Part shown: in pieces, positions 7,301 through 59,765 of the stretch
Layout: every line of letters begins with the position of its first letter
Numbering within the stretch: the first letter of the stretch is position 1
NCBI GenBank assembly: GCA_964016885.1
Contig: OZ024742.1
Location: forward strand, 314,092,001 to 314,156,000
DNA: 64,000 bases
Source: Eledone cirrhosa
Taxonomy: Eukaryota
Direction: 5' to 3'
The notes under the pieces: generated by a model
The model's input: only the letters and a program-made list of their open reading frames with translations
Database searches by the model: none
What the model was told of the DNA's origin: nothing
Translations under genes and position numbers: made by a program

Positions 7301-7532
7301 TATATATATATATGCATGTATCTATGTACATATTTACGTTTATATGCATGTATGTATGTATGTATGTATGTATGTATGTATGTATGTATGTATGTATGTA
7401 TGTATGTATGTATGTATGTATGTATGTATATATGTATGTGTGTATGTATGTAAGTATGCATGTATGTAATGTATGTTCTCTCTTTCACTTAATTTTGAGT
7501 TTACATTTTACCGTCCACCTTCTATATATATA

Positions 7533-8376
7533 CAAAGTGTGTCAGAAAAGTTCCAGGACTGATGTCACAAAAGATTTATTTCAAACCCAAACTTCACACT
7601 AAGAGTTTTCTTCTTCAAAGTAATCCCCCTGGAGTATGTAACTGTAATCTTAGCTCTCTGCAGCGATCAAACTTTTTTCTTCATAATTTTATATATGTGT
7701 CCTCTGTTTCAGGTCGTCAAGCAATGAGCACAGAGCAACGAACAAACTTGGTTGCTGCATTCAAGTGTATGGAGATGAGGCGATGTCATGCTCACGTGTT
7801 TTTGAGTGGTGGAAGAGGTTTAAAGAAGGACGCGAGGACGTGGAAGATGATCAAGGAGCGGAAGGTCCTCAACAACCAGGACTGAAGTCAACGCTGATGG
7901 TGCGTAGCGATCGTCGGCGGACTGTTCTACTGATGACAAATGAGCTGGGCATCAATCGGGACAGCGTCTGGAAGATTCTCACTGAAGATTTGGACATGCT
8001 GAAAGTCTCCGCGAAGATGGTGCCAAAACTGCTGAACGATGACCAGAAGGTTGACGCATGCAAGTGTGCCAGGACATCCTCGAGCGTCTTGAAACCGAAC
8101 CAGACTTGGTAGGGATAGTCATCACCAATCTTCGAGTACGACCCGGAAACCAAACGTTTTGAAGACGTGGACGACATCAAAAAGGCCGTGACGACGGAAC
8201 TGCGGAGGATCCCCGAAGAATCCTTCCAGGAGTGCATACAAGCGTGGCAGAAAAGGATGGAAAAGTGCATTAGACTCCAGGGGGATTATTTTGAAGGAGA
8301 AAACTCTTTGCGTGAAGTTTGGGTTTGAAATAAATCTTTTGTGACGTCAGTCCTGGAACTTTTCTGACACACCTCG
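7533..8376 (+). mobile_element. Mariner DNA transposon, internally deleted, ~100-bp TIRs, TA flanks
   Basis: TIRs caaagtgtgtcagaaaagttccaggactga.. / ..tcagtcctggaacttttctgacacacctcg. Transposase pieces: HTH YGDEAMSCSRVFEWWKRFKEGREDVEDD, KMVPKLL (WVPxxL-like) and C-terminal WQKRMEKCIRLQGDYFEG. Most of the catalytic domain is missing. Confidence 0.92.
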
Positions 8377-8407
<31 letters not shown>

Positions 8408-8842
8408 GTTGAATATACAGGAGAGATAAACACAAATATAAACATACATGTGTTCGAATTGTAAAGGACATATTTTTAGAAGTGGAAGGATCGCTAATTC
8501 TTATACCTACTGATGAACAGAGAGTTGGTGATGCCTTCGCTTAATAATAATTTTGCGTAACAGATTCTATAACTGTCTAGGTGTTTTCAGGCAGTTGCCC
8601 AATATAGGTTTGTTATTCTTTTTCTTAATTTACTACTTTAAATTAAGTTTGGCAAACCATATTGTTATAGTTAGTATTTTTTCACCCTAGCAAAACTGGT
8701 CCTTTACAATTCGAACACGTATATGTTTATATTTGTGTTTTTCTATCCTGTATATTCAACTATATTACACTTCTCAGAAAAACTTCTTTCTTAGCGCTAT
8801 TTAATTGTAAGAGACTATTTTGAGTTTCTAACTCAGTATTTG

Positions 8843-8956
<114 letters not shown>

Positions 8957-16200: not shown

Positions 16201-16611
16201 TCGAGTTTTCGCATATACAAGACACAAAATTCTTTATTAATAATATATTTAAAATATATCTGTTCATCTATTATTTAGTTAAATAGCCACCATAAAGTCA
16301 TATAATAAAACAATTAGGAGAATTTAACATGGTCACTCAACCTGATTGAAACAGCAGCCAACTCTCCCCAGAAGACTTTCGCGGAATAATTTAATATGAC
16401 CAGAATACTTAAGAAACAGCAGACAAGATTTACTGAAATTAAAAAACAAACAAACGTTTAGTACACATAAATAGTGGATTATGAAGTATGTAATAATTCA
16501 GCTTTAGTAGGTCATTGCTTAACTACATTGAAATTACATGTTAGATTCTTATTGTGCAATAAATGTTTCTTCGAATCTAAACAAATCATAAGTAGTTTTT
16601 CCTAAGTCCAT

Positions 16612-16725: not shown

Positions 16726-17391
16726 ATATTGTTATACTTTGGGAGGGTCATGTTGCCAATAAGAAACACACACACCAGTTGCTTTCACTCCAATTTATTA
16801 TAAATTAAAAAAGTTTATAAAATCTACACACCGAAAAGACGCAATGTTTAGACAAATCACAGAGGCAATAAATACAAATGAACTCCAACCAAAATTAAAT
16901 AGAAAACATGAGTGGAATAGCAACATCACAACTTACAATTAAGGACAAAATGAAAACACACACACATAGAACAAACAACCAACCAGTAACATGAAATAAA
17001 CAAATAAATAAACAAATAAAAGCACACACAGACACCCGGATGTAACACATGCGCAAATTAAGCACACAACACACACAAAAACAAGATGGCGTAGGACAGA
17101 ACAAAGGAGAGGCACAAAACAAAGAAAAGAATCCCCAGTCACTGAAGAGGTCACAGAATGTGTGACGAAAGAACTTTGACAATATATGAACAACCGTCCG
17201 GTTGTGGAACCAACCAACCAACCGGAAATTTATAAACTTTTAAAATGTTTCAATTTAATTTATAATAAATTGGAGTGAAAGCAACTGGTGCGTGTGTTTC
17301 TTATTGGCAACATGACCCTCTCAAAGTATAACAATATCGGTTTCAACACACGTTTTCAGATAAAGAATCTTGCTAAACAAATTCAGAAATG
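16726..17391 (+). mobile_element. Family A HHR-bearing inverted-repeat retroelement (PLE-like, non-autonomous), copy 1
   Basis: Arms 16726-16809 / 17254-17337, 54-bp tail, (TA)n on both sides, HHR at 17138-17180. Confidence 0.85.
17138..17180 (+). ncRNA. Minimal type I hammerhead ribozyme
   Basis: GUCA-CUGAAGA-G GUCACA GAAUG UGUGAC-GAAAG AA CUU^UGAC. Stems I, II and III all pair. Confidence 0.85.
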
Positions 17392-17480
<89 letters not shown>

Positions 17481-28623: not shown

Positions 28624-28720
<97 letters not shown>

Positions 28721-29387
28721 CAAGATGTATGGTAGGTCGTACGTAAATCGCGATGATCACGCCTCACCTACCAAATATGCGACGGTAGCTAGTTAAGCTC
28801 TATGCGTATAAGCAGAGCAGAAATATTAATGAAAAAGAACAAAGAAACTTTTATGACATTATAACAAGTTTATTGCCGACAGCCGTTTCGTCCGACCATA
28901 TGGTGGGCCTTTTCAAGGCGTATAACAGGTAATTGTAAGTTCATTATTTTCATCAACGTTTCACTCAAGATTAGCAGTTTGAAATCGTGGTATACATCAA
29001 CAGCTCAGCTTGTATATTTGGGGTCTATATTCTAAGGGGGCTCTTTTATATTAGTTGTAAGAGTTGTAAAAGGCATAGGTTATAGGGAGTTAAGAGTTAA
29101 GGGATTGAAGGTTAAAAATTAAAGAATTTATAAGTTACGCATTAAACGTAAAAGACTTGGGATCACTTAAAAGCACCTTAAAAAATCCCTCAATAAGCGC
29201 ATAAAGCTTATAAGCCCCCAATAAACCTAAAAAACCAGAAGAGATTAAGAGAATAAAAAAATAAAAATAAAAAGTTTCCTAAAAAATTCCTTCAAAAGAA
29301 AAAAAAAAAAAATTTTCTAAGAAATTCCCTTAAAATTTTTTAGAAAATTTACGAAGATTTAATAATCCCTACGAAAGTTCTAAACTC

Positions 29388-29577
29388 AAAAATTAAAAAT
29401 TAAAAATTAAAAATTAAAAATTAAAAATTAAAAATTAAAAATTAAAAATTAAAAATTAAAAATTAAAAATTAAAAATTAAAAATTAAAAATTAAAAATTA
29501 AAAATTAAAAATTAAAAATTAAAAATTAAAAATTAAAAATTAAAAATTAAAAATTAAAAATTAAAAATTAAAAATTA
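29388..29577. repeat. (AAAAATT)n heptamer tandem array, ~27 units
   Basis: Read directly. Confidence 0.95.
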
Positions 29578-30157
29578 GGGAAAAGAACTTTCAATAAGAT
29601 TTAAGAGGTTAATAAAGTTAATGATTTAGGGAATCCATAAAATAAAGATTAAGATTTAAGTTAGGATTTGAAGTTTAAGAGTTCCAAACCCAGAAATTTA
29701 AAAATTTAATGAATTTAAGATTAAGCAATCTTATATATCCAAGATTAAAAATTAAAGATTAAGAGGTTGAACATTAAATTTAATTTTAAAAAATTGTTTT
29801 TTTAGGTTTATTGGGGCTTATAAGCTTTTAGGTTTATTGGGGCTTATAAGCTTTATGCGCTTATTGAGGGATTTTTTAAGGTGCTTTTAAGAGATCCCAA
29901 GTCTTTTACGTTTAATGCGTAACTTATAAATTCTTTAATTTTTAACCTTCAATCCCTAACTTTTAGGCCCTTTTCAAATTCTCTTAACTCCCTATAACCC
30001 ATCCCTTTTACAACTCGTACAACTAATATAAAAGAGCCCCCTTAGAATATAGACCCCAAATATACAAGCTGAGCTGTTGATGTATACCACGATTTCAAAC
30101 TGCTAACCTTGAGTGAAACGTTGATGAAAATAATGAACTTACAATTACCTGTTATAC

Positions 30158-30202
30158 GCCTTGAAAAGGCCCACCATATGGTCGGACGAAACGGCTGTCG
30201 GC
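30158..30202 (+). ncRNA. Hammerhead ribozyme, U3:A8 core (mirror copy at 28875-28919 on -)
   Basis: GCC-UUGAAAA-GGCCCACCAUAUGGUCGGAC-GAAAC GGCU GUC^GGC, followed by AAUAAA. Confidence 0.75.
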
Positions 30203-30268
30203 AATAAACTTATTATAATGTCATAAAAGTTCCTTTGTTCTTTTTCATTAATATATATATATATATAT

Positions 30269-30818
<550 letters not shown>

Positions 30819-31553: not shown

Positions 31554-33293
<1,740 letters not shown>

Positions 33294-36615: not shown

Positions 36616-37374
36616 TTGGCGGCGCACATGAGTCAGCAAGCAACTATCTTCTCTATTTAAGACTTTATTACATCATTTGCCGAATTTCACTCCCACTCTA
36701 CCAACTAACCTTGCTACATTAAAGCTTTTTAATTGCTCTTGTTACCTCGGCGAATTAGAAGTTAGTCGTCGCTCGCAGATACACCGTGTATACATCAGAA
36801 GATGCTGTTCTACCCGGGTTTGGGAGATGAGCAAAGCACTCTCTCCGACTCGCGCGGAGAACCCCTGACGCGTTTCTGGTAACAGCCGTGGAGGAGAACG
36901 CCTTATTACGAAGTCAGCGGATAGTCTGCCAGAATACTTTATTTGCTGATCTGAAACCGGATTCTACCTGAACGCCAGAGATTTTACATATCTTAATTTG
37001 AACGTCTTTACTGTCTCTGCTGAGACCTTTCGCGCCTGTTTGTACCACAAGTGCAAGAAGCAGGACTTATTTCCAGGCCAAGCTTTGTAATTCTCCTTCA
37101 TTGCTCAGATGATTAAACCAAACAATTATCTTCTCATTCGGCCCCACATTCAACCTCTTTCGCTTGCAGGCTTTAACAGCTTAAGCAGGAACTGTCACGC
37201 TAAATAGATAGCTCGAGCCGAACCACCCAGTCCTTTAGGTTTTCTTGGATTTAGGTTGTCAACTTAAGTTGACAAATCAACCACTCTCTTAATACGAACA
37301 TTCAGCACAGAATCGAAGAGATCGGAGACAATAACGTAAGAGGGTGTATAAGAATGTATATGAATAATTGCATG

Positions 37375-37444
<70 letters not shown>

Positions 37445-37447
<3 letters not shown>

Positions 37448-39470
37448 GACGCGTGGGTTGGATGGGTGGAGGTGAAGTCAAGGTAAAATTGGGAGTCTGT
37501 TGGTTTAATGAATATGGAAGTAGAGAAGGTGTGGTGAAAGTGATTAATAGATAGAGAGATATCTAGAAAAGCGACAGAAGTATCGGAAACGGAGGCGGTG
37601 AAATTGAGAGCAGGATGGAAAGATTAAACAAAAGAAAGAAAACAGTCGAGCTGTTCTAGTGATAGAGAGGTGGCGCCGATACAGTCGTCGATATAACGAC
37701 CGTATAGCTCAGGAGTCGGTCCAGCGTACTGGGAGAAGATCTGGCTTCGACGTAGCCAACAAACAAGTTGGCATAGTTTGGACCCATTCTGGTCCCCATC
37801 GCTACCCTAGAGACCTGCTGATAAAGTTCACCCGAAAAAGAAAATCCATTGAGGGTGAGAACAAGCTCAGCCAGACGGAGAAGAGTGGTAGTGCTGGGGT
37901 AAGGGTAGGGCGTAAATCTAAAAAAATGTTGGAGAGCGCGGAGACGGTCATCATAAGGGATGACGGTATAGAGAGAGGTGATGTCCAGGAGAAAGAGTTG
38001 AAGAGTCTAAGGACATAATTTGTATCGTGGATGAGGGAGGGGAGGTTGCCGACCAACGGGGCGAGGATGGTGTCTAAATATTCAGAAATTATCTCGGTGG
38101 GGCAGATGTTCGCAGAAACGATAGGACGGCCAGGATTATTTTTTTTGTGTATTTTGTGGAGGAAGTAGATGGTGGGTGTGCGAGGGGCGCGTACAATAAT
38201 GTTGGTGGCTGTGGGGGTAGGAGAGAGGAGGAGATGAGCTAGTGGATGGTGGAGGACATGAGTTATTGGTTGCCAGTAGTGGGATCGGAGGATGAAGGGC
38301 GGTAAACAAGAGTATTGTGAAGCTGGTGGAGAGCCTCAACCCTATAGAGGTCAACGCTCCAAACCACCACAGCTCCACTATTGTCAGCGCGTTTGATGAC
38401 AATGTCATGGCGACGCCGAAGGTTGCGAAGAGCGGAGAGCTCAGTCCGCGTGATATTAGAGCGACGAGAATGCTGATGGAAACGGAACCGATTCACAGTA
38501 CGCCGGCAAGTATCGACAAAGGAGTCGAGCGTGCTGAACTGACCAGAGCTCAGCGTCCAATGTGATTGCCGACGACTGAGACAAGTGAAGTCATCCGTCT
38601 GTGTCGATGATGGTGTATCGGGAAAAAAAGCTTTCAGCTTTAATCGACGGAAGAACCCTTCAATCTCGGCATGTGTGCGGAACTCGTCGCAGGTAGATGT
38701 GGGTTAGTATAAAACGCAAACCATGGGCGAGGAAGGAGCGCTCAACTTCGTAGAGTGGTAGGTCCTGGGGCATGGTGACTACAGTGCAGGGACGTGAGGG
38801 AGTGAAAGAGGCAGAGGCGGATGGGTCAAGGTGGTTGGGCAAAGCGTGTGCAGATTCAGTGGTGGGGAGAGTAAAGGGGGTGGTAGGTGACGCGATAGAG
38901 GGGTTAGGGTTGGAGTTGATATGAGTATGGGTGGTGACGGCAGGCGGGGAGCGGAGAGGGTCGAGTTTGTGGTTTTTTTACGGAAGTGAGGAAATTGAAA
39001 AGGAGGCGATTGAGGTAAAGGATGAATTGGATAAGGGATTGGGCGAGGAAAGGGTGGCAAGTGGAGGAGAGATGGAGGTAGGCCCTGGGGAGTTCTCGGT
39101 CGCGAGAACGGATTTGGGCGAGAGTTGATTGAATGGCCGCCCGCATGAGCTGGCGAGAGGTGCGGGTAAGGATGGCTCAGTGGTGGGAGCAGAGTAAGAG
39201 GTGGGGGTGAAACTTGAGGCGGCAAACGCGGGGAATGAGGTGGTGGTGGAGACAGCGACTTAAAAATGTGATGTGACTGTTGTATCGTGTTTTGGTGAAG
39301 ATGAGGTTGGAAAGATGCAGGGAGGATTTGATGCATATAGGGGGTGGGGGGTTAGAGGAAGCGCTTGAGAGTAGAATGGAGCTGGCGGAGAATAGATTTG
39401 AGATTGGGCATATTGAAGGTACTAGGGTGGCAGTGTAAAATAGACGGGTGTGAAGAAATATATCTTTCTC
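37445..39470 (-). mobile_element. Penelope-like element, N-terminus plus RT, decayed and 3'-truncated
   Basis: [80 protein letters not shown]. Confidence 0.9.
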
Positions 39471-39509
39471 TGTGTCTCTCTATATATATAGAAAGGGAGA
39501 GAGATGGAG

Positions 39510-41409: not shown

Positions 41410-41915
41410 GTTTTGCGAGGTTTTTTATATGAAATCGTGTGTCGAAACAGATATTGTTATATTTGGGGAGGGTCATATTTGCGTAATATTGCCAGAATTA
41501 ATAACAGAACACACTCACTGTTTGGTTGGTTTTCGCTTCTTGCGCAAAGAAGACAAAATAAAATAAGATAAACAAACAAGCAAATAAATAAATAAATATA
41601 TAGACAGACTGAACAAAAAAATGGCGTAGACATACAACACAACAGGAGGAACAATGAATATAACACCACTGACGATGTTGCAGATGTGCAACGAAAGATT
41701 TATGTAAACTATATATATATGTGTTTGTCTATATTGTATCTGTATTATTTTTGACCGCCGGTCAGTCAATGGCAACATTGAGGACCGAGTAAGCTAGATC
41801 GCAGATATATATATATAAAAGACAGCGAGAAGCGAAAACCAACCAAACAGTGAGTGTGTTCTGTTATTAATTCTGGCAATATTACGCAAATATGACCCTC
41901 CCCAAATATAACAAT
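41410..41915. mobile_element. Family B HHR inverted-repeat element, copy 1
   Basis: Arms ~41453-41544 / 41826-41915, tail at left. HHR at 41666-41705 (+): CA-CUGACGA-U GUUGCA GAUG UGCAAC-GAAAG AU UUA^UG. Confidence 0.82.
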
Positions 41916-42399
41916 ACATATATATATATATATAGTTAAAAATGAACGAACAAAACACAGGAGGCAACAAATATATAATCTATCTCTTTGTATATCTTAT
42001 TCAATTAACCTTCTCATAAATCAAATTTAACACAAATTGTGTTTATCCATACGAGATCTTTTTATAAATGAATTATGTTTGCTGATCCTTTGTTTTCAAA
42101 TCATAAATAGATTCCAGAAGTTTCCGTGAGTAAGAATGACAATTTTAATTTTATGAACATGATTGTTATATATACATACATTTAAAAATGTTTCCTGCAA
42201 AATATAAATTTTTAAATATGTTAAAGAGAAACGGTCTATGTTTCTATTGTCTACCTTTCCATATTTCTGTTGAGATGGAGCCTGTAACGAATAAGGTTGT
42301 CATGTTACTGCTACCAGTTTTGTAACGCCTAAAGATTCGGTCTCTAGCAGCAAACTACATGAGGAAGATAGCACTGTTATGTAATTTTCGTCCTTCTGG

Positions 42400-42620
42400 T
42401 GAATATTTATGATACCAAGAGTCTCGGTAGCTGAACAATGAGTCAATGGATACTGATTTTCCTCCACATTTGATATGTTGTTTTGGGTGGATTGCTTCCA
42501 CTGTGATGACCGAGCTTTGGTTTCCGATTCTTCTATGTACAGCCATCTCTCCACTCCAGTTATTCTAGTTTCATAATATTCAGTAACTAAGTGTCCTTGT
42601 TTTAAGTACCAGGTACAATG
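42400..42620 (-). mobile_element. Decayed mariner transposase fragment
   Basis: RITGVERWLYIEESETKARSSQWK resembles mariner IxTGDETWxYxYEPETKxQSSQWK. Confidence 0.6.
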
Positions 42621-43047
42621 AGAATGCGAGAAATACGACGTACACACATCATACTTTGACTACATAATAGCGAGCTCACCACACACACGCACACATATAT
42701 ATATATATCAATTGAAAAAACGGAGTTAACGACTCGCCTTAATCCCCTGTAATTTTATGAGCTCAAGGAATAAATCACCGAGCTCTTAGTAATACAGTAT
42801 ACAGAGAAGGAAATACAAAAAGCGGCATGCTTTCAATTACAGGGGGTAGAGAACCACTATAGTGAAGGATATAAGGTCTACGAAAAGTGGAGAAAATACA
42901 TAATAATTAAAAGGTAACATTAAAATGTAAAAAAACTCACCTTTATAACTATACTACACTTAGACATTCCCAACGAAGAGAATGCTGGTACCGTACCTTC
43001 TCAAGGCTTGTCAACAGGTGTAAAGAAGATATAAATATATATATATA

Positions 43048-43999
43048 AAGTGGTGGACTGGGTCTAAAAATATTGGTTGCCAGGAGATGAAGGGGACCCA
43101 CCTACATATAGAATGCTATCATTTAACTTATTTTAATGAATAAATAACATTTTCAAAAAATGCATAAGTGGAAACAAAACAGTGCAATCAAATTTTTGCG
43201 GAAAAATATTTTACCTTCTTCAATAAAAAATATTATGTATTTTGCGAAATCCAGAGATTTTCAATAATAACCAGAAATCAACCCTAAATATTACTAATAG
43301 CTCTAGGAAAGCCATGAACGTCACCACATATTTTCAGTTTTTTATATTGGTTGTAACATAAAAACTGAAAAAGGTCATATGTACCACTTGATCAGGATTG
43401 AACCCAAGGTCAGGATCACTAGTACCTACCGCTAGGCCACAGAGACAACTACGAAAGTCTTATGAAAATTCATACTTATAAACCTACTTTCAAAACAAAA
43501 TGTGTGGTTTCGTTCATGTCTTTCTTAATGTTATTGCTCCTACTTAAAGTCGACTTCTAAATAATGTGGGTGTTCAATAAACTACATCTTCCTTTGGTTT
43601 CTCATCTATCTAGACTACATTTTAACCTGTAATCCATGTTTAATTTCTTATCCACCTCATCCCCCCCACCTCTCTGTGATATTTGAATCTAGTTATTCCT
43701 ATATATATGTTTTTGCATGTCAGTTAGACTCAAACTTACAATGATTGGTATTATACAGTGGCGGACATCTAAAAATATTGGTTGCCAGATGAAGGTGGCC
43801 CAGCTACATATACAATACTATCATTGAATTTTTATAATGAATAAATAACATTTAAAAAAAATATTAGTGGAAACAAAACGGTGTAATCAATTTTTTGCAG
43901 GAAAATATCTTACCTTCTCCCCCCCCCCCAAAAAAAATGTTTTTTTGCAAAATCCAGAGACTTTCAATAATAACTCACTCAAAAAATATATATATATAT

Positions 44000-44053
<54 letters not shown>

Positions 44054-44356
44054 TTGCATGCATGAAAATGAATACACTAAGCTTTAGATTTAGTAGAATG
44101 TACAATCACTGATTCCAGCTATTTGCATTATCGTATATTTTAGTTTCTAATAATTCCCTGGGGAATTGGTTACTTGTTTTATTTGTTTTTTAAAAAATGT
44201 TATTCTTTCTCTTAGATCTCAGGTATATTTTGAAGCAAAGCATTGGCCCCTAAAATACTACAGAGGGCCCTGCAATGCTACTGTGGGGTCCTGCAATGCT
44301 ACCGTGGGATCCTTGGGGCCCACTTGCCATTGGGCAACCTGGCCAGTCCGCCACTG
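43048..44356. mobile_element. hAT-like non-autonomous element with a duplicated left end
   Basis: Termini (c)agtggtggactgg and cagtggcggac at 43048 and 43756 versus ccagtccgccactg at 44356. ~220-bp direct repeat. No clear TSD. Confidence 0.55.
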
Positions 44357-44394
<38 letters not shown>

Positions 44395-44737
44395 AGTGTG
44401 CTTTGTTTTTGGTGAGCTCGCTATCTTGTAGTCAAAGTGTGAAGTGCGTACATCGGATTCCTCGCATTTTCGTTACGCCTGGTACATAATACAAGGACTA
44501 TTACTGTGTGTGCTTGTGTGTAAGATTATAGGCGGAAGTAAGGTGAACAGCATTTATATAAGGTACCCACCATTCTCCCCATTATTATAGTATATATATA
44601 TTATCACATACACATATATATGTGGAAACGTAAAAATATACATTCACGCGCAGAGGCTCACAACCAGGCGCACACAATCTCATTCTAATTTTTGCCTTTG
44701 GATTTCTGTACTTCATTATATATATCTGTACTTCATT

Positions 44738-44914
44738 GGATTGGCAGTATCGGTAGAGGGTCGGACGACATGCTTTGACGCATAGAGTTACGGCCCTTGC
44801 CATTCTCAGTTCAAATCCCGCTGAGGTTAACTTTGCCTTTAATCCTTACGGGGTCAATAACATAAAGTACCAGTAATACACTGAGATAATTGCTGGCCTT
44901 GTGCCAAAAGTAGA

Positions 44915-44920
<6 letters not shown>
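44738..44920 (+). mobile_element. tRNA-derived SINE
   Basis: Consensus match. Confidence 0.88.
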
Positions 44921-44949
<29 letters not shown>

Positions 44950-45244
44950 ATTTATAACCTTTTATTTTTTATTTATCCACTTTGTAATTCTTATATTTTT
45001 GGCAACTTTGTGTCTACGAAGTTTTGTATGAATATAATTTAGTAATTTGAATTATAATAATCCTCTGCAAATTTGCATAGTTTATACATACAATTTGCAT
45101 AAGATTTGCACAATTGAATATTTGCATAAATTACACATTTGCACAATTACAATTCCTGCATCTGGCATTATATATCATTTGGTATATTTCACTTTACTTT
45201 ATTGTAAAATTGTACTAAATATACCAAGTAATGTTTTCTGATTT

Positions 45245-45842
45245 AGGCCCAAGGACAAAAGGTTTTGGTGAGGCAAAAGTCAATTAAATCACAGCGTATT
45301 ACTGGTTCTTTATTGTATCGACTCCGAAATGATGAAAGACAAAGCTAACCTCGGCGGGATTTGAACGTAAAGGGCTGTAACTATATGTAAAGTGCCGCAA
45401 CTAAATTATCTTGTCCGAGGCTCTCCCGATATTGCCAATCCACTGCCCTTAAGTACAACAAATAATGGTTACTTAATTAGGCACAATGCAAATAATTTTT
45501 GGGGAGGGGGATTACAGATTACATCGATTTCAGTGCATGACTGCTACTTTATTTTATCAACCTCTTAAGGATGAAAGGCAAAGCTAACCTCGGCGGGATT
45601 TGAACTCAGAACGTAAAGGGCCGTAACTCTATGTTGCAAACCATGGTATCTGACACTTTAGCGATACTGTCAATCCACAGCCCTTAGATCCAATAATAAT
45701 AATATTGGCTCAAGGCCAGCAATTTGTTGGAAGGAGGGCAAGACGATTATATCGACCTCATTGCTTCATATTCTAATAGTAATAATAAAGCACCAGTAAT
45801 GCACTGGGGATAATTAATGGCCTTGTGCCAAAAAGTAAAAAG
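45245..45842 (-). mobile_element. Cluster of SINE copies and pieces (mostly minus strand)
   Basis: Copies at ~45245-45445 and ~45467-45680, plus tail fragments. Confidence 0.8.
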
Positions 45843-46387
45843 AATTATATTAGTAATAATAACAACAATGTGCTAATTTCTTGTAATACAAATATTACAA
45901 ATAAAGAGATAAAAATTCCCCAAATAAGAACGTGGAAAAAATACAGATTACTAAATTTATAAAAAAATAATGCTAATCGAACTAGCAAATCATTTTCCAG
46001 GAAAACGGTTATAATTTACTAAGAGTTATGAAATAATGATTTATTAAAAGGATAACTAAAATTTTGCAATAACTATTTTAGGCAGTCGATAATAACACTT
46101 TATTCCGAGAGACAAGCGATTTATGCTTGCAATATTTCTGGAAAATATCTGAAAGATCTGATATGGTGTATGTTTATTAAAAGACCGTAAATTTATTTTA
46201 TCATTTGAAGAATAGTACATTGCAGACTCCAACAAAAAACATGTATAACTATATGAATATTATAATTTTACAGTTGTTTGCATAAGTATTAAAACATACT
46301 CACAGCATGGTACCCCATAAAGACATGAGCAAATAAAACAATAAAATCAAAGAGAACCTAAACGATGGATAGTTTAATTGTATAACA

Positions 46388-46459
46388 AATAATAAAATCG
46401 GGGTGAAATTCAAAATCTCCGCGTGAATTTATTGACAGAATGGCTTCCCCAAGGCAGAA

Positions 46460-46503
<44 letters not shown>

Positions 46504-46568
46504 TTCTGCTTTGGGGAAGCCATTCTGTCAATAAATTCACGCGCAGATTTTGAATTTCACCCCGATTT

Positions 46569-46573
<5 letters not shown>
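46388..46573. repeat. Palindrome centred on (TG)n(TA)n(CA)n
   Basis: ataataaaatcggggtgaaattc..cagaaagtgtg / cacactttctg..gaatttcaccccgattttattat. Confidence 0.9.
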
Positions 46574-46603
<30 letters not shown>

Positions 46604-46607
<4 letters not shown>

Positions 46608-47019
46608 TACTTGGGGAGGGTCATATTGCCAGAAATAATAACAGAACACACTCACTGTTTGTCTGGTTTTCGCTTCTGTATCTTTTATATCTCCATAGTT
46701 AATTTATTTGGCAATCAGAATTTATCATTGATTGACCAACGGTTAAAAATACAGATATAAATATATATATATAGTCTATCATAGTTCTTTCGTTGCACAT
46801 CTGCAACATCATCAGTGGTACTATAATCATGTTCCCTCCTATTGTATTGCAATGTTTACGCCATTTTTATTTTATTTATGGAGATATAAAAGATACAGAA
46901 GCGAAAACCAACCAAAACAGTGAGTGTGTTCTGTTATTATTTCTGGCAATATTATTACAACAATATGACCCACCCCCAGGTATAACAATATTTGTTTCGA
47001 CACATCAAAAACCTTGCAA

Positions 47020-47024
<5 letters not shown>
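46604..47024. mobile_element. Family B HHR inverted-repeat element, copy 2
   Basis: Arms ~46604-46697 / 46878-46987, tail at right. HHR at 46779-46818 (-): CA-CUGAUGA-U GUUGCA GAUG UGCAAC-GAAAG AA CUA^UG. Confidence 0.82.
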
Positions 47025-47342: not shown

Positions 47343-47884
47343 AACGAAGGAAATGTGGTAAGGAACCAGGTGGACCATAACGCACCAAAGTACTCAATAC
47401 TTGAGGTAGTAGAGTGGGTAATAGGAACCAGTAAGACCCCGACAGCTGAGCTCAAGCCGTTTCGACGGCTAATTCTGGACTAAATGAACATTTATCCTGG
47501 TATTTAAATAGCCGATCTTCTCAAGGGGTAATTCCATATATGGTCAAAGTGATTGTCAAAAATCAGTAGTAATTCTGTGGTTGCAAATTAGTAGGGGAGA
47601 TGGTGGCTAAACCTGCCAGTAGGAGAAAGAGGGGAGGGGGTGGAGTAGACCCAATCAAGCGTTGGTAGTGCCAACTACAGCTGGGCATGAGGTCAAAGAA
47701 GATACAGGGGAGGGGGAGGGGGAGGAAGTCGGAACGGTAGGTAGAACAATGGGGGGTAGAAATAGGAAAGAAAAAATACTGAGAGTGAAGAAAAGCAAAT
47801 AAGTGTAAAGAAAAAATTAAATTCTACGACCTAGGTGTCAGGCTATTGTTAGGCGAGAATAAAATAAATAAAGAAAGAAAGAAG

Positions 47885-47915
<31 letters not shown>

Positions 47916-49546
47916 GGAAATAAGTAAAAGAACTAGGTGGGACGAATTAGGCAAGGACCCTTTTAAGAGGTATAAGTACGTAAATGATACGGTGACTGGT
48001 CAACAAAAGGGGCCAAAATACTAAAGAGACTACCACGAAATAAACAATAAAGGTTTCCATCCCGGGCCAGCAACGACCCAGTGCAGCAAAGTGAACTTGT
48101 ACGACATAATAATTCTGAGTCCCGAGAAAAATATATACTAATGCTAACTCTAAAAGATCTAAAACAAGCTACATGAAAGTTCGTACGAAATAAAGGTAGA
48201 ATACGGAGAAATAAGTTCAGAATCCACCCCGCCCAGAAGAAAAGCGAAGCAAGAAATACTGAAACGAAAAAATAAGGCATAAGTGCCACTAAGAAAAATA
48301 TAGAGGGCACAGAGAATAGTGGGAGCGGTCGGAAAAGGGGGGCAAGTATCCGGGGTCTAAGCCAACTGCTATAAAGGGCGGAGTCCGCCAAATCTATCAA
48401 AGACTAGGGGAGGGGGGAGTGGGGGTACTAAGGCTACATGGGGCCAAAGGGCAGCCTCGGGTGGGCGAGAAAAGACGCCGACAAAGGAGAAGAGCTGGGG
48501 TAGAAGGACAAAGGAGAGAGGGGGGAAGGAAATAAAGGATGCGATAAAAGAATACAAAGAAGATCTTACGTCTTCCTTGGCAAGCAGGGGTTACCCATTG
48601 CAAAATCGGCAACTGGGGTGTTATAGCCCTAGTCTACCCCCCCGGGTCATTATGGGGTTTGAGGGCGAGGTAAGTCCTACGCAATCTAGGCACTTATGCC
48701 TTATTTTTTCGTTTCAGTATTTCTTGCTTCGCTTTTCTTCTGGGCGGGGTGGATTCTGAACTTATTTCTCCGTATTCTACCTTTATTTCGTACGAACTTT
48801 CATGTAGCTTGTTTTAGATCTTTTAGAGTTAGCATTAGTATATATTTTTCTCGGGACTCAGAATTATTATGTCGTACAAGTTCACTTTGCTGCACTGGGT
48901 CGTTGCTGGCCCGGGATGGAAACCTTTATTGTTTATTTCGTGGTAGTCTCTTTAGTATTTTGGCCCCTTTTGTTGACCAGTCACCGTATCATTTACGTAC
49001 TTATACCTCTTAAAAGGGTCCTTGCCTAATTCGTCCCACCTAGTTCTTTTACTTATTTCCTTATTTATTTATTTATTTATTTATTTACTTCTTTCTTTCT
49101 TTCTTTATTTTATTCTCGCCTAACAATAGCCTGACACCTAGGTCGTAGAATTTAATTTTTTCTTTACACTTATTTGCTTTTCTTCACTCTCAGTATTTTT
49201 TCTTTCCTATTTCTACCCCCCATTGTTCTACCTACCGTTCCGACTTCCTCCCCCTCCCCCTCCCCTGTATCTTCTTTGACCTCATGCCCAGCTGTAGCTG
49301 GCACTACCAACGCTTGATTGGGTCTACTCCACCCCCTCCCCTCTTTCTCCTACTGGCAGGTTTAGCCACCATCTCCCCTACTAATTTGCAACCACAGAAT
49401 TACTACTGATTTTTGACAATCACTTTGACCATATATGGAATTACCCCTTGAGAAGATCGGCTATTTAAATACCAGGATAAATGTTCATTTAGTCCAGAAT
49501 TAGCCGTCGAAACCGCTTGAGCTCAGCTGTCGGGGTCTTACTGGTT

Positions 49547-49551
<5 letters not shown>
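47343..49551. mobile_element. 2.2-kb inverted-repeat element: ~865-bp near-identical arms, ~400-bp spacer, ~78-bp tail
   Basis: Arms 47421-48287 / 48689-49551, (TA)n flanks, an HHR in each arm. Confidence 0.9.
47436..47529 (-). ncRNA. Type I hammerhead, U3:A8 core, large loop II (mirror copy at 49443-49536 on +)
   Basis: ACCCC-UUGAGAA-GAUCGGCUA(~37 nt)UAGCCGUC-GAAACGGCU UGAGCUC AGCUGUC^GGGGU. Confidence 0.82.
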
Positions 49552-51188: not shown

Positions 51189-51645
51189 ATATTGTTATAC
51201 TTTGGGAGGGTCATGTTGCCAATAAGAAACACATGCACCAGTTGCTTTCACTTCAATTTATTATAATAAATTTATAAATTTCTGGTTGGTTGGTTGGTTC
51301 CACAACCAGATAGTTGTTTATATATTGTCATAGTTCTTTCGTCACACACTCTGTGACCTCTTCAGTGACTGGGGAGGCACAAAAACAAAGAAAAGAATCC
51401 CAGTCACTGAAGAGGTCACAGAGTGTGTGACGAAAGAACTATGACAATATATAAACAACTATCTGGTTGTGGAACCAACCAACCAACCAGAAATTTATAA
51501 ATTTATAAATTTATTATAATAAATTGAAGTGAAAGCAACTGGTGCATGTGTTTCTTATTGGCAACATGACCCTCCCAAAGTATAACAATATCGGTTTCAA
51601 CACACGATTTCAGATAAAGAATCTTGCTAAACAAATTCAGAAACG
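51189..51645 (+). mobile_element. Family A element, copy 4 (~185-bp near-perfect arms)
   Basis: Arms 51189-51373 / 51399-51591, 54-bp tail. HHRs at 51327-51369 (-) and 51403-51445 (+), triplet CUA. Confidence 0.9.
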
Positions 51646-51656
51646 ATATATATATA

Positions 51657-54480
51657 AATTCGCCTCGCCGAGCTGGTCCTCACCCTCAACTGTTTTTCCT
51701 TCTCGGGTGAGTTTTACAAACAGGTCACGGGGGTCAGGTCACAGGCCATGGGCACAAGAATGGGCTAAAACTATGCCAACCTTTTTGTTGGCCATGTTGA
51801 GGCCCAAATCTTTTCCCAGTTCACCGGCCCCACGCCTGAACTGTACGGTCGTTACATCGACGACTGTATCGGAGCCACGACCCTCACCCGAGAACAGCTC
51901 GACTCCTTTCTCTCCTTCTTCTGCTCCTTCCACCCCTCCTTCCATTTCACCACCTCTATCTCCACCACCCATGTCCACTTCTTAGACATCTCCGTCGCCT
52001 TCGACCCCTCCCACCACTCCCTCGTCACCTCCACCTTCTTCAAACCCACCGACTCCCACTCCTACCTCGACTTCACCACTTCCCACCCTACACACACTAA
52101 ACACTCTATTCTCTACTCCCAACTCCTCAGGATCCGCCGCCTCTGTAGCCGAGATGATGACTTTGAGTCCCAGGCCCGTTGCCTAGTCAACCATTTCATC
52201 CGCAGAGGTCCCCCCTCTCTCGTCCACACCGCTCTCACTCGCGCCCGTGCTGTCCACCGCTCCACCACCCTCACCCCACGCCACCACCCACCCACCCACT
52301 GTCCCCTCTTTCCCATCACCTACCACCCCTCCACCCTAAACCCTCCACCGCACTATCCTCCGCCTCTTCCGACGCCTCCAGTCCGACGCCTCCACCTCCC
52401 ACATCTTCCCAGCCCCACCACTCCCCTCCTTCAAACGCGCACGCAATCTCCGCACCATCCTCGTCCGCAGCTCCCTACACCCCAACCCACGCTCTCTTCC
52501 CCCCCGGTTCCCTTCCCTGTTCCAGCCAGGCCTCGTTGCAACACCTGTCGCCACATCACCAACACCACCACCTTGCAGGGCCCCAACGGCCACTCTCCCT
52601 CTGTCCGGCATGCCTTCCGCTACACCTCCTCCAACCTAGTCTATGGACTTCGCTACACGGAGTGCAGCGCAACCTACGTCGGACAGACTGGACGCCGCCT
52701 GGCGGACCGTTTTACCGAACACCTCCGGGATATTCGTCTCGGTGGTCGTTCCCCCATCGCCCGCCACTTTGGCTCCCCTGGACATTCCGTGCACCACCTC
52801 ACAGTCTGTGGCCTACTCCAATGCCACGGAACACCCGCCACCCTCCTCAGGGTCGAACAACGCACCAACTTCACCCTACAGACCCACATTCCCCCCGGCC
52901 TGAACTCCCCACCCCTATTCCTTTAGCCTTAGACCCCCCCCCCTCCCACACACACACACACATATCCCCCACTAACACCACTAACACACTCCTCCTTTTC
53001 ACCGCCCACCCCACAACTAACAATACTAACATCCCCACCCCACACCCGACCGCCCTTCCCTAACTAACAATACTAACATCCTTTCTTCTCCCCCCGCCCC
53101 TTATCAGGCACACACCCACCGGTACATATATACACGCACTTACACTAACCACACACCCTACTACCGCCACTAACCCTCACCCACACATCCACTCCCACCA
53201 CCCCACAACTAATACCACTAACATACCCCGACCCCACGCACACGAACACACACACCCATTTACACCACCCACTGTATACAGCCTACCACCACTGACCCCC
53301 ACTAACACCCGCATTCAACCCTTTCCCCACCACCAGTTTACTAACACCCACTTCACCACACACACACTCATCCAAACACGCACACACACACCAGTACACT
53401 ACAATCCCTCCACCGGCCCCCACACTTTCTCTCCCCCTCCCACTCCCCGCTCCACCCACACTCCTTCTCACATACACACACAATCCCACTAACACCTCTA
53501 TTAATACACCCCTTCCCCAGTTCACCTTTCACACCTACCCATCCTCTCCCCTGTCCAACGCACCTCCGCACACACTGACACACCGACATTCTCCCCCTGC
53601 CAATCTCCCCTACTGCTGCTATGCCCTGAATCTCTGACCACCTCTCCGCACACACAGACACACAACCCTCCTCCTGCCTTGACCCATTGACCACTTCCTG
53701 TTACGCGCGCACCCCACATCTCCCCTCTTCCGACCAACCCAACCACGGATTACACACATTGGACATCGCTCCCACGAATCAACTCCATCACAAGGAAATT
53801 ATCCGGCATCCCACCACATCCTCTACGAAATTATCTTAGGAACTTACCCACGGTCATACACTCACAAACATTTTTTTTCCCACACGCCACCTACATCCAC
53901 AATACGTATAAATACCACACACACGTGCGTACCACCACATATTTAAACACTCAGCCTCCGGAATCCTCTCCCCCACTCCCCCACCCCTCTGACCCCTCCC
54001 CATACACACATACACACATACACCGACCTACATCCCACCCCACACACACCTTTTCCTGAACATGCAACCCCGTTCTTCCTCCAACTCTCACATTCACATA
54101 CACACACATACGTACACCTACACACACACACCACCTTCAGCCCTCCCGGCTCGGACACCCCACCTCCCTCTCCCCACTCCACCCGCCACCACCCCTACAT
54201 GCCCCACACCCTTCCACCACTTGTTTAACTTCATGTTTATTTTTATTTTTATTATGCTTTTATATTTATTTTCATTTGTACCGTTTCCTCTCACCCCCTT
54301 TTTTCTAAATGTCTCCCCCCACTCCTCTACACACCCTTGGAACTCCCTTCCCACACACTTTTCGCCTGAAGAAGGGCTTATGCCCGAAACGTCGTTCCCC
54401 ACCACCACCCCATTCTCAAGAGCGTGAAACTAATAAACCTTTGTTCGTACTGCCTCTCTGTTTTGTTCCCGTTCAATTTT

Positions 54481-55438: not shown

Positions 55439-56021
55439 GTAGAACACTGGAAGGTAAATATCCGTAGTGGTAGAGCACTCAGTCCATGGGACAAGTTAGG
55501 TAGAAGTGGTTACACAACAGTTAGTTCACCATACCGCGAACGATTGTTTCACCTTAGCGGATCCTCAACTCGTATTGGGCATGGTTATACGGAACAGGAA
55601 GGACAACCGTACGAACGCGAATGCGCAAAAACCCGTCACTACACACAGGCAATACTAAAATGCATGCGAGAGGTGTAAGGGAGATAACTGCGAAAGTCCG
55701 AAAAGTTTTTAGTTGATAAGGAAAAATATTGATGATGTTACAATAATTCATTCAATCCGGAGTTTTGTAATTATGCAATAGGTGTTTCGAGACGTGTGGA
55801 CAACGTGTGAAAAATGTATTTCTCGTGTTTAGGCAATCACTATTGTATAATCTCTTTAGAATATTTATTCGTTCGTCAATACACAGTCCACACAACGGAT
55901 TTCCCCTTGCGTATGGCTTGGACTTAGTGATGGCTTTCCATTGAATGGAGTAGTCTATACTTGAGTCCTTGAGGGACCATACGTGACTCGCGAGTTTCGT
56001 GGATGAACGTCTGTCCGGGTA

Positions 56022-56089
<68 letters not shown>

Positions 56090-56298
56090 GTAATAATAAT
56101 AAATTTCAAGACTAAAATCCAAAGAGGGCTCGATAAGGATAAATATATTTCAAATATATAAGAACCGTAGAGCAAATACTTATTAAAATAACAGATTAAA
56201 GTTTAAGCAAAGAATCGCTGCTTTCACCCTTAACGGGATCTTCTGAAACTAACAAAGTCAAATATACATATACATATACATATATATATATATATATT

Positions 56299-56957
56299 CT
56301 CCACACGCCACCTACACCCACAACACGCTTAAACCCCACACACACGTGCTTTCCACCACATATTTACACCCTCAGCCAATTGATTCCTCTCCCCCCACCC
56401 CTCTATCCACACACGCAGAGACACTCCGACCTACAACCCCCCCCCCACACACACACACGCCTCTTCCTGAACATGCAACCCCGTTCTTCCCCCAACCCTT
56501 ACTTTCACATAGACACACACACACACACATGTACACCTATACACACACACCACCTTCAGCCCTCCCCGCTCGCACACCCCATCTCCCTCTCCCCACTACA
56601 CCCGCCACCACCCCTACACACCCCACACCCTTCCACCACCTATTTTACCCTCCTTTTAATTTTAGTTTATTTTGATCATGCTTTTATACTCAAATTTATT
56701 TCATTCCTTGTATTTTGATCATGCTTTATTTTTATTTTTATTTTTATTTTTAATTTCATTCGCACCGTTTCCTTTCGCTATATGTCTCTCCACCACTCCC
56801 CTACACACCCTTTGAACTCTGTTCCCACACACTTCTCACCTGAGGAAGGGCTTATGCCCGAAACGTCGTTCCCCACCAACACCCCACTCTCCAGAGCGTG
56901 AAATTAATAAACATTCGTTGTACTGCCGCTCTGTTTTGTTCCAGTTCAAATTTTTCC

Positions 56958-56960
<3 letters not shown>
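56299..56960 (+). mobile_element. Solo 3' end (pLTR) of the 51657-54485 PLE family
   Basis: Diverged direct homologue of 53878-54485, including the HHR; flanked by (TA)n. Confidence 0.88.
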
Positions 56961-57018
<58 letters not shown>

Positions 57019-57742
57019 AAAGAAAGAAAGAAAGAGAGCGAGAGAGAGTAAGAGAGAGGGGGAGAGAGAGAAAGAGAAAGAAAGAGAGAGAGTGAGAGAG
57101 AATGAAAGAGAGAGAGAGTGAGAGTGAGTGTGTGTGAGAGGGAGAGAGTCTGCGGTACAGAGATCTGGGAGACCACAAATCAGAGTAGTACTTGATACAT
57201 AGTACAATAATGAGGTAAAGGCGATTTCAGTAGTAAGCTCTACTCAGTAGTAAGCTCTACAATTACATGCTTGTGTATGTACGTATTTGGACGCGTGTAT
57301 GTATTTATTTCATTTCAATTACCTCTGTATTGTATTTTATTTACTTTATTCTTAACTCTGAAGCGGAGAATCATTCGGTTTCCTAGTTTGAATTTTAGTC
57401 TACGACTTCAGCTATACCATTTACGTGGTTTTGTCTTTGCGAGCAATTGTTCTCCACGCTCCACATATGACGTATTATCTTCGTTTTTTCCGTTCATTGC
57501 CAGAGAACGTCTCTATGAACCACCTAAGAGAACATTAGTCTCCGACTTCTTTTATACCATAAACGTGGTCCTGCCTTTGCGTGTAATTGTTTTTCACCGA
57601 TCCTATTAATGACGTATTATATTCCTTTTTCCCGTTCTTTGCCAGGGAACGTTTCCACGAACCAAAGTATCGTCTTCCTGTCTTCCTTCGGTTGCAACGT
57701 TTTTTGAAATATCCACTTCTGCGTTTACAGATTGACTTTGTT

Positions 57743-57793
57743 AGTTTCAGAAGATCCCGTTAAGGGTGAAAGCAGCGATTCTTTGCTTAAACT
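57743..57793 (+). ncRNA. Hammerhead-like motif with CAGAAGA core (mirror copy at 56200-56250 on -)
   Basis: AGUUU-CAGAAGA-U CCC GUUAA GGG U-GAAAGCA GCGAUUCUU UGCUU^AAACU. Confidence 0.65.
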
Positions 57794-57903
57794 TTAATCT
57801 GTTATTTTAATAAATATTTGCTCTACGGTTCTTATATATTTGATATATATTTATCCTTATCGAGCCCTCTTTGGATTTTAGTCTTCAAATTAATTATTAT
57901 TAC

Positions 57904-57956
<53 letters not shown>

Positions 57957-59239: not shown

Positions 59240-59302
<63 letters not shown>

Positions 59303-59308
<6 letters not shown>

Positions 59309-59726
59309 ATTAATAAATGAAGACATTCACATAATCAATATATGTTTTATTATATATATTTCGAAGGTACTGTGCTGTTTTTTCAGTACGTTCTCGTCAG
59401 ATAAAATACATGAATTGATGTATGACATACCTCAACGGTCTTGATGGTTCAATTCCAGTATTGGCAATACTGGAATTGAACCATCAAGACCGTTGAGGTA
59501 TGTCATACATCAATTTATATATTGTACCTGATGAGGACGTACTGAAAAAACAGCACAGTACCTTCGAAATATATATAATAAAACATATATTTTGATTATG
59601 TGAATGTTTTCATTTATTAATATTCTGAATAATATTAATAACTCCAGAAAACTTCTTTGTAGAGTGCTTTTAATCTATTGTAAAACTATATTCATTGAGT
59701 AATCAATGAACCATATTAATCTTTGG

Positions 59727-59728
<2 letters not shown>
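59303..59728. mobile_element. Hairpin HHR element: ~160-bp arms, essentially no loop, ~100-bp tail at right
   Basis: Centre ccagtattg-g-caatactgg. HHRs at 59345-59406 (-) and 59522-59583 (+). Confidence 0.88.

Positions 59729-59765
<37 letters not shown>

Follow-up and report, generated by a model that had tools for sequence, protein, structure and literature searches.

Layout of the two family B units

Here we describe two short inverted units in a 64-kb window of Eledone cirrhosa DNA (64,000 nt; assembly GCA_964016885.1, contig OZ024742.1, positions 314,092,001 to 314,156,000 of the forward strand), and consider how they may have arisen from a Penelope-like element (PLE). Positions are counted from the first letter of this window, to which all counts and censuses refer unless otherwise stated. 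Its DNA is AT-rich, of animal type and dense in (TA)n tracts and repeats. The span 41410–47024, which a preliminary description had entered as Family B, is not one element: it holds two separate insertions about 4.7 kb apart, B1 (41410–41916) and B2 (46604–47024), both of them units of that family. In each, two arms stand head to head, and (TA)n tracts flank the unit on both sides.

B1 reads (TA)n, a 42-nt tail, a 92-nt minus-strand arm, a direct junction, a 373-nt plus-strand arm and again (TA)n. B2 is its mirror image, with the long tailless arm on the minus strand and the short tailed arm on the plus strand. In agreement with the preliminary description, the tail is on the shorter half of both B copies (a layout that we call tail-short), and the hammerhead motif is confined to the longer tailless half (41669, +; 46815, −). 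It is likewise true that this layout is opposite to that of family A, all four copies of which are tail-long; these stem from three events, the copies at 31610 and 32447 being a 99% tandem duplicate. The duplication (31576–33286, 837 nt, 99%) takes in the whole A unit plus a flanking microsatellite. Counted from an ATG, B1 and B2 end at two fixed positions, one near +25 and the other near +60 to +67, and the minimal hammerhead motif lies 157–190 nt upstream of this ATG. The features are collected in Table 1.

Table 1. Positions of the parts of B1 and B2, of the family A copies and of further inverted units in the window
Feature	Position	Strand	Remarks
B1 tail, 42 nt	41410–41451	−	Codons 9–22 of presumed open reading frame (ORF) start; stops at (TA)n
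B1 short tail-bearing arm	41452–41543	−	91/92 identical to long-arm end; ATG 41476
B1 head-to-head junction	41536–41553		Near-perfect palindrome centred on 41543/41544; without (TA)n
B1 long tailless arm, 373 nt	41544–41916	+	ATG 41892; stops 25 nt into frame at (TA)n
B1 minimal type I hammerhead motif	41658–41714	+	Core from 41669; extra U 41676; stem II 41677–41692; self-complementary helix III AGAUUU; predicted cut after 41702
B2 long tailless arm	46604–46876	−	ATG 46624; stops at (TA)n 46572–46603
B2 hammerhead motif	46770–46826	−	Core from 46815, GAAAG-AA-CUA-UG; predicted cut after 46782; stem I split (2 bp, internal loop, UAUAGU/ACUAUA)
B2 short tail-bearing arm	46877–46991	+	93/98 identical to long arm plus indels; ATG 46965, frameshifted
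B2 tail, 33 nt	46992–47024	+	10-nt deletion relative to B1; stops at (TA)n
A0, tail-long	16726–17395		Long arm starts with 39 open codons (16823–16939) and a stop
A1 and A2, 99% tandem duplicate, tail-long	31614–33191		Arms only 91.6% identical
A3, tail-long	51189–51643		Arms identical except indels; intact hammerhead motif in both arms
Unit C	28720–30254		(TA)n-bounded; tail-long by base composition of centre
Unit E	47345–49551		(TA)n-bounded; tail-long by base composition of centre
Unit J	8403–8845		(TA)n-bounded; tail-long by base composition of centre
Unit D	30270–30685		(TA)n-bounded; one tail, symmetric
Unit G	59294–59730		(TA)n-bounded; one tail, symmetric
Unit H	56053–57940		(TA)n-bounded; equal ends, microsatellite at junction

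Shared terminus and hammerhead motifs of families A and B

The terminus said earlier to be common to A and B is borne out: positions 41410–41479 of B1 are 83–86% identical to the four A tails over 70 nt, tail included. Shared terminus and tail begin at the ATG, and the reading frame stays open. Over 23 codons, A and B1 differ by 6–7 synonymous and 4 non-synonymous single changes (binomial p 0.002–0.006 against a null of 20% synonymous sites, for three A copies that are not independent and a frame picked by its ATG); 7–8 changes fall at third positions, and A0 has one double change. The other five frames, four of which contain stops, give synonymous/non-synonymous counts of 2/7, 1/9, 2/8, 5/5 and 1/8. 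Judged from this pattern of substitution, terminus and tail are likely to be the start of an ORF, as in PLE tails. In rotifer Penelope, the available text of PMC3846280 describes a pseudo-long terminal repeat (pLTR) and tail that cover the first 22 codons of the ORF; an overlap with the first ORF codons is present here as well, the tailed arm of B2 being frameshifted. Outside the hammerhead, an AAnATGGCG motif and the terminus, the A–B alignment does not rise above chance (its score is reached by 26/500 and 117/500 shuffles). Thus the description of B as a sister of A stands as far as kinship goes and fails for the spacers between the conserved islands, which cannot be aligned above chance. 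The two are likely, on sequence grounds, related families that have kept ORF start, hammerhead and upstream motif while their spacers diverged.

Both B copies have GUUGCA/UGCAAC as hammerhead stem II, where A has GUCACA/UGUGAC, so that two of the six pairs are changed on both sides (C-G to U-A, A-U to G-C). These are true double changes, as the preliminary description held when it called them compensatory. Across the eight motifs, 79 of 80 cells form standard pairs, as against 18–49% in slid-partner controls; the eight rows are related by descent, and the covariation amounts to two events rather than a statistic. The AUCAC/GUGAU variant at 32603–32641, also put forward as covariation, was rejected: it is a single copy, and its 99% tandem twin (31770–31805) shows a mismatched A-C where the variant pairs A-U. 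The two states are a single C-to-T change at a CpG apart, and the variant is best read as decay. The GAAAG-AA-CUH-UG junction claimed for family B holds for B2 (GAAAG-AA-CUA-UG) and not for B1 (GAAAG-AU-UUA-UG). The B1-type motif is not private to this copy, since a contig of run X4 matches 41682–41755 without difference, and among 7228 run X1 contig pieces aligned to B1 no variant of at least 5% was listed inside stem II.

Helix III of B1 has a self-complementary sequence (AGAUUU), a feature expected of dimeric minimal hammerheads (PMC4209133, from the part available). As monomers, the motifs fold no better than shuffles (z −0.12 and −1.24), and the duplex energies of the 6-nt helix III (0.0 and +1.4 kcal/mol) make the dimer pairing only a geometric fit. 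Helix I has only 2 bp beside the core in both B copies; B2 and the loose ends in X1 add 5–6 bp beyond an internal loop. A pattern scan gave eight hits in the window and 0–1 in each of ten shuffles, whereas an Rfam search of the window gave no match at gathering score; pattern and covariation place the motif in the pLTR as a predicted ribozyme. The tailless arm of A3 begins just before stem I (51373). Units E and G also carry hammerhead motifs. Hammerhead-like motifs with a UUGANAA core (U3-A8 type) occur in E (47524, −; 49448, +) and C (~30160, +), that of E with a long stem II and a palindromic helix III. The AAnATGGCG motif, found at 17085, 41621 and 50113, precedes the hammerhead core of A and B by ~45–55 nt and also occurs close to the end of another family; we take it to resemble a YY1 site.

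No reverse transcriptase (RT) was found for family A or B within the window or by protein searches, and the exact terminus pattern had no match in metagenome, genome or viral contigs. Protein searches with the N-terminal peptide yielded no accepted homologue, and its Atlas matches were without family; P0001, a peptidase C39 protein with internal repeats (E 6e-4), was rejected as a chance match. The A0 long arm opens with 39 open codons and a stop (16823–16942, +), which the Atlas places near eukaryotic GIY-YIG clusters with scores of 0.78–0.82. This piece is possibly the GIY-YIG C-terminus of the autonomous element of family A, and we treat it as a lead only; it does not match the profile of Neptune-type PLE endonuclease C-termini. 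Neither peptide occurs in the metadata text of the PMC8557442 supplement, so far as that text was available.

Broken PLE RT-endonuclease remnants unrelated to A and B lie at 51660–52926 (+) and 37267–39479 (−), with 30 PLE-type homologues and profile matches; we presume them to be of the Neptune-type clade. They are accompanied by pLTR-like hammerheads at ~54367 and ~56841. At 55752–56025 (−) there is a short ORF end with CxxC..E..N..CxH, an arrangement described for Hydra-clade PLE endonucleases, and at 7523–8386 the remnant of a mariner-type DNA transposon with terminal inverted repeats (Pfam HTH_48).

Origin of the inverted arms

Each B arm holds sequence that is absent from the other: the tail on one side, ~280 (B1) or 165 nt (B2) of upstream sequence on the other. 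Neither arm can therefore be an unedited copy of its partner. Since unedited fold-back of a single cDNA makes the second arm a subset of the first, the tail-short layout with its non-nested arms excludes it; later deletion or endonuclease trimming would also yield this layout. The preliminary description had preferred independent truncation and two separate primings to simple fold-back. The rejection of unedited fold-back survives, while the step from tail-short copies to two primings does not, as these copies do not force it. Similarly, the truncation points of the two halves look independent and the choice of start site does not.

The latter point comes from a census of 14 further inverted pairs plus the five A/B events. 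Among (TA)n-bounded inverted units from six families, 10 of 11, all five A/B events among them, have exactly one tail (6 tail-long, 2 tail-short, 2 symmetric). This count may be biased upward, since a unit whose ends do not differ by a tail is less easily recognised. Eight pairs were excluded as not (TA)n-bounded on both sides or of another kind (two of the mariner-type element, and those at 16508, 23573, 40801, 46389, 50092 and 61027). Asymmetry is not greater in units with more diverged arms: unpaired centres of 23, 401 and 281 nt occur in A3 (100% arm identity), E (99.7%) and B1 (98.9%), the least diverged of all, and the symmetric D and G persist at 97.9% and 95.1% with centres of 3 and 9 nt. 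The centre of unit C is filled by a run of 7-nt AAAATTA repeats (29382–29577). The excluded pair at 46389–46574 is a 186-nt palindrome (97.8%) centred on (TG)n(TA)n(CA)n. It abuts the left (TA)n of B2, its far end lacks (TA)n, and it may represent flank that snap-back at the target copied in reverse during B2 insertion.

Copies elsewhere were sought in sequencing runs. When run X1 was aligned to B1, 15 of 21 joints were listed, 13 of which join left arm to right, all at different points. At five of these 13 the shorter side reaches 9–36 letters into the tail and the other arm starts 155–246 nt upstream of the tailless end; they are probably further tail-short copies. At three of the five, the long arm starts 1–5 nt inside the hammerhead core (41670–41674). 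A B1 reference cannot reveal tail-long units, so X1 gives no ratio of the two layouts, and summed contig depth was not taken as copy number. The raw-read runs X22 and X23 were uninformative, with one aligned read each.

Within the core common to all four B arms, the two B1 arms are identical at 85 of 85 positions, while B1 and B2 arms are 92–95% identical, which points to one template for both arms of B1. We favour, with a probability of roughly 0.55, the reading that B1 and B2 are single 5′-truncated insertions of an endonuclease (EN)-bearing PLE, each made from two separately started head-to-head cDNAs. The endonuclease would cut both strands in (TA)n; of the resulting 3′ ends, one would prime at the start site of the tail end, within the beginning of the ORF, and the other would use the tailless site, which has an AT-rich edge similar to the target. 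The two cDNAs would terminate separately, and their 3′ ends would anneal on a few bases before fill-in. The cDNA that ran further would become the long arm, tail-long (A) and tail-short (B) units being two outcomes of one process. Two junctions can be read on both sides, and their microhomology is 3 nt in A1 and 2 nt in A3. In vitro, two RT start sites bound the tail of an anole PLE and both target strands are extended (PMC11167929, as its available part reports), which fits two primings in B.

The one-tail rule implies coordination, with a different start site used at each of the two ends. We tentatively suggest, as a possibility still short of an even chance, that PLE inverted units form by coordinated two-ended priming, from the tail site and from a tailless pLTR end that pairs with (TA)n, possibly with two RNAs held by a dimeric protein. 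If true, this would explain both the one-tail rule and the free variation of the two arm lengths; mismatched arms (A1, B2) would be chimeras of two templates, and tail-short copies would be genomic proof against plain self-priming. No published statement of this model was found in the literature searched, outside which most subscription papers lay, nor was the argument from tail-short copies found there.

Several observations weigh against two separately started cDNAs in a PLE insertion. The in vitro start sites were alike between strands and by themselves predict no one-tail rule, and that work recovered no inverted products (PMC11167929, in its available part); the coordination is not yet explained by in vitro data. 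The arms of B2 and A1 differ by 5% and 8%, and arm identity is a weak clock that gene conversion can reset. Whether a tail is absent from the long arms is not visible in the X1 joints, which the B1 reference also biases. Neither protein searches nor contig pattern searches found an RT or endonuclease gene of family B; the A0 C-terminal peptide has no match in Pfam, PHROGs, PDB or a homologue search, and it and the N-terminal peptides score E above 10 on profiles of 30 PLE homologues. Finally, the palindrome at the B1 junction is 8 pairs long (attained in 3.9% of 5015 simulated junctions) and suits fold-back followed by deletion.

In this last alternative, which we regard as unlikely though the strongest of the rivals, one tail-end cDNA folds back symmetrically and the tailed arm later loses an internal stretch by the centre through long-hairpin repair. 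In its favour, symmetric units with very short centres (D, G) occur in the window; the B1 short arm opens with a near-exact copy of the long arm's first 11–12 nt and then continues from a shared AGAAG, a 6-nt palindrome separates the arms at one X1 joint, and junction palindromes are read as self-priming in the available text of PMC3846280. However, B1 is one of five junctions tested, and 3.9% is not significant after correction; the B2 (5 pairs), A0, A1 and A3 junctions lack such a palindrome (3–5 pairs, null mean 4.0). Moreover, symmetric units persist at 95–98% arm identity, while units with near-identical arms are asymmetric.

Less probable again is a self-primed or folded-back double-stranded intermediate with a tail on both arms, one of which, be it the one or the other, the endonuclease trims at the AT-rich tail boundary during integration. 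This would explain the one-tail rule directly. What is available of PMC8557442 ascribes the tail to endonuclease resolution of an intermediate, at either end; AT-rich sequence lies at the tailless boundary, and such DNA is a substrate of the anole enzyme, which also cuts its own pLTR (PMC11167929, in part). The same in vitro data, however, put the genomic ends at RT start sites with target-primed extension, and no intermediate is visible in the sequence.

It is very improbable that A and B are non-autonomous units, retrozyme-like or resembling miniature inverted-repeat transposable elements, that move as a fixed palindromic element. Consistent with such units are the high copy number (the 7228 X1 pieces), the absence of a B coding partner from our searches, the derivation of retrozymes from PLE pLTRs (bioRxiv 10.64898/2026.07.22.740005, in the part available) and a near-symmetric joint (41519 to 41850) with a depth of 205 in two contigs, as compared with ~10 for others. 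Yet the junctions differ in every window copy and in the 13 listed X1 joints, so the palindrome must be rebuilt at each insertion; the window has no head-to-tail hammerhead arrays, and A0 runs into a possible coding end.

Two chance insertions per B unit, landed back to back, are unlikely and largely refuted: although the B2 arms differ by 5% and several indels, and are no closer to each other than to B1 in the shared core, they share the 20 upstream bases of a B2-type subfamily seen in 44 X1 contigs, the B1 arms are identical in the core, all five A/B events have head-to-head order with one tail, and neither junction has the (TA)n boundary that the preliminary description had named, beside a target site duplication (TSD) for each half, as the sign of adjacent insertions (no (TA)4+ tract lies nearer than 134 nt to the B1 or 104 nt to the B2 junction; the TSD search is uninformative inside (TA)n).

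Proposals for how PLEs acquire their inverted repeats and one-sided tail comprise self-priming, endonuclease resolution and internal priming. The part worth following here is the argument from tail-short copies against plain fold-back, which is of modest mechanistic interest. The models could be told apart by how often tail-short copies occur at each age, by whether the two arm lengths vary independently and by chimeric arms, and thousands of short copies that fit single long reads make such a census feasible.

Comparison with known systems

In L1 twin priming, two target ends each prime a cDNA and the resulting inversion is joined on microhomology, as in our reading of B. The arms of an L1 twin-priming product come from adjacent parts of one RNA and do not overlap; those of B both represent one segment, an arrangement that calls for either two RNAs, a tandem RNA or strand displacement.

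The closest likeness is to EN+ Penelope-like elements (Craig et al. 2021, PMC8557442 Fig. 2; Arkhipova et al. 2013, PMC3846280; both from the parts available). Inverted 5′-truncated copies with a tail at either end are a published architecture (PMC8557442), and the window units share the canonical inverted, 5′-truncated copy adjacent head to head at the 5′ end, the tail at one end only, a pLTR and tail that overlap the ORF start, and (TA)n targets without discernible TSD. They differ in tail length (33–42 nt in B and ~57 nt in A, as compared with 30–40 nt described) and in that both arms are stubs. Of the single ORF with telomerase-like RT and GIY-YIG, only the ORF start (A, B) and the possible C-terminus in the A0 39-codon piece are seen, and no full copy, with direct pLTRs around a complete ORF in partial tandem, occurs in the window. 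Naiad PLEs are without a canonical hammerhead and have an N-terminal endonuclease; A and B carry complete minimal motifs and, if these are genuine, would not be Naiad.

Poseidon PAc of the green anole (Frangieh et al. 2024, PMC11167929) resembles A and B in the two fixed ends downstream of the ORF start that bound the tail, the AT-rich target and the hammerhead in the pLTR. According to the available text, its ORF starts inside the hammerhead and its start sites are ~111–118 nt into the ORF; in A and B, by contrast, 125–190 nt separate the predicted cut from the ATG downstream of it, and the ends map to about +25 and +60 to +82. Inverted units are not addressed in the accessible part of that paper.

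The minimal type I hammerheads of metazoan PLEs (Cervera and de la Pena 2014, PMC4209133, in part) are marked by a long helix II, an unpaired base before it, a short helix I and a palindromic helix III, and these traits are present in the A and B motifs. Also shared are the 6-bp helix II with G10.1-C11.1, the tiny helix III, the unpaired base between positions 9 and 10.1, compensatory changes between families and opposite-strand pairs 100–700 bp apart. B differs in a helix I that seems split (2 bp, internal loop, 5–6 bp); that of A is a plain 4 bp.

Non-LTR retrozymes (bioRxiv 10.64898/2026.07.22.740005, as far as available) are likewise short and non-coding, with a type I hammerhead and an origin in PLE pLTRs. 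They form head-to-tail tandems with a hammerhead per unit, unlike the B units, which are head-to-head, dispersed in the window and furnished with one hammerhead each. Taken together, A and B are likely new families of ordinary PLE stubs in an already described layout.

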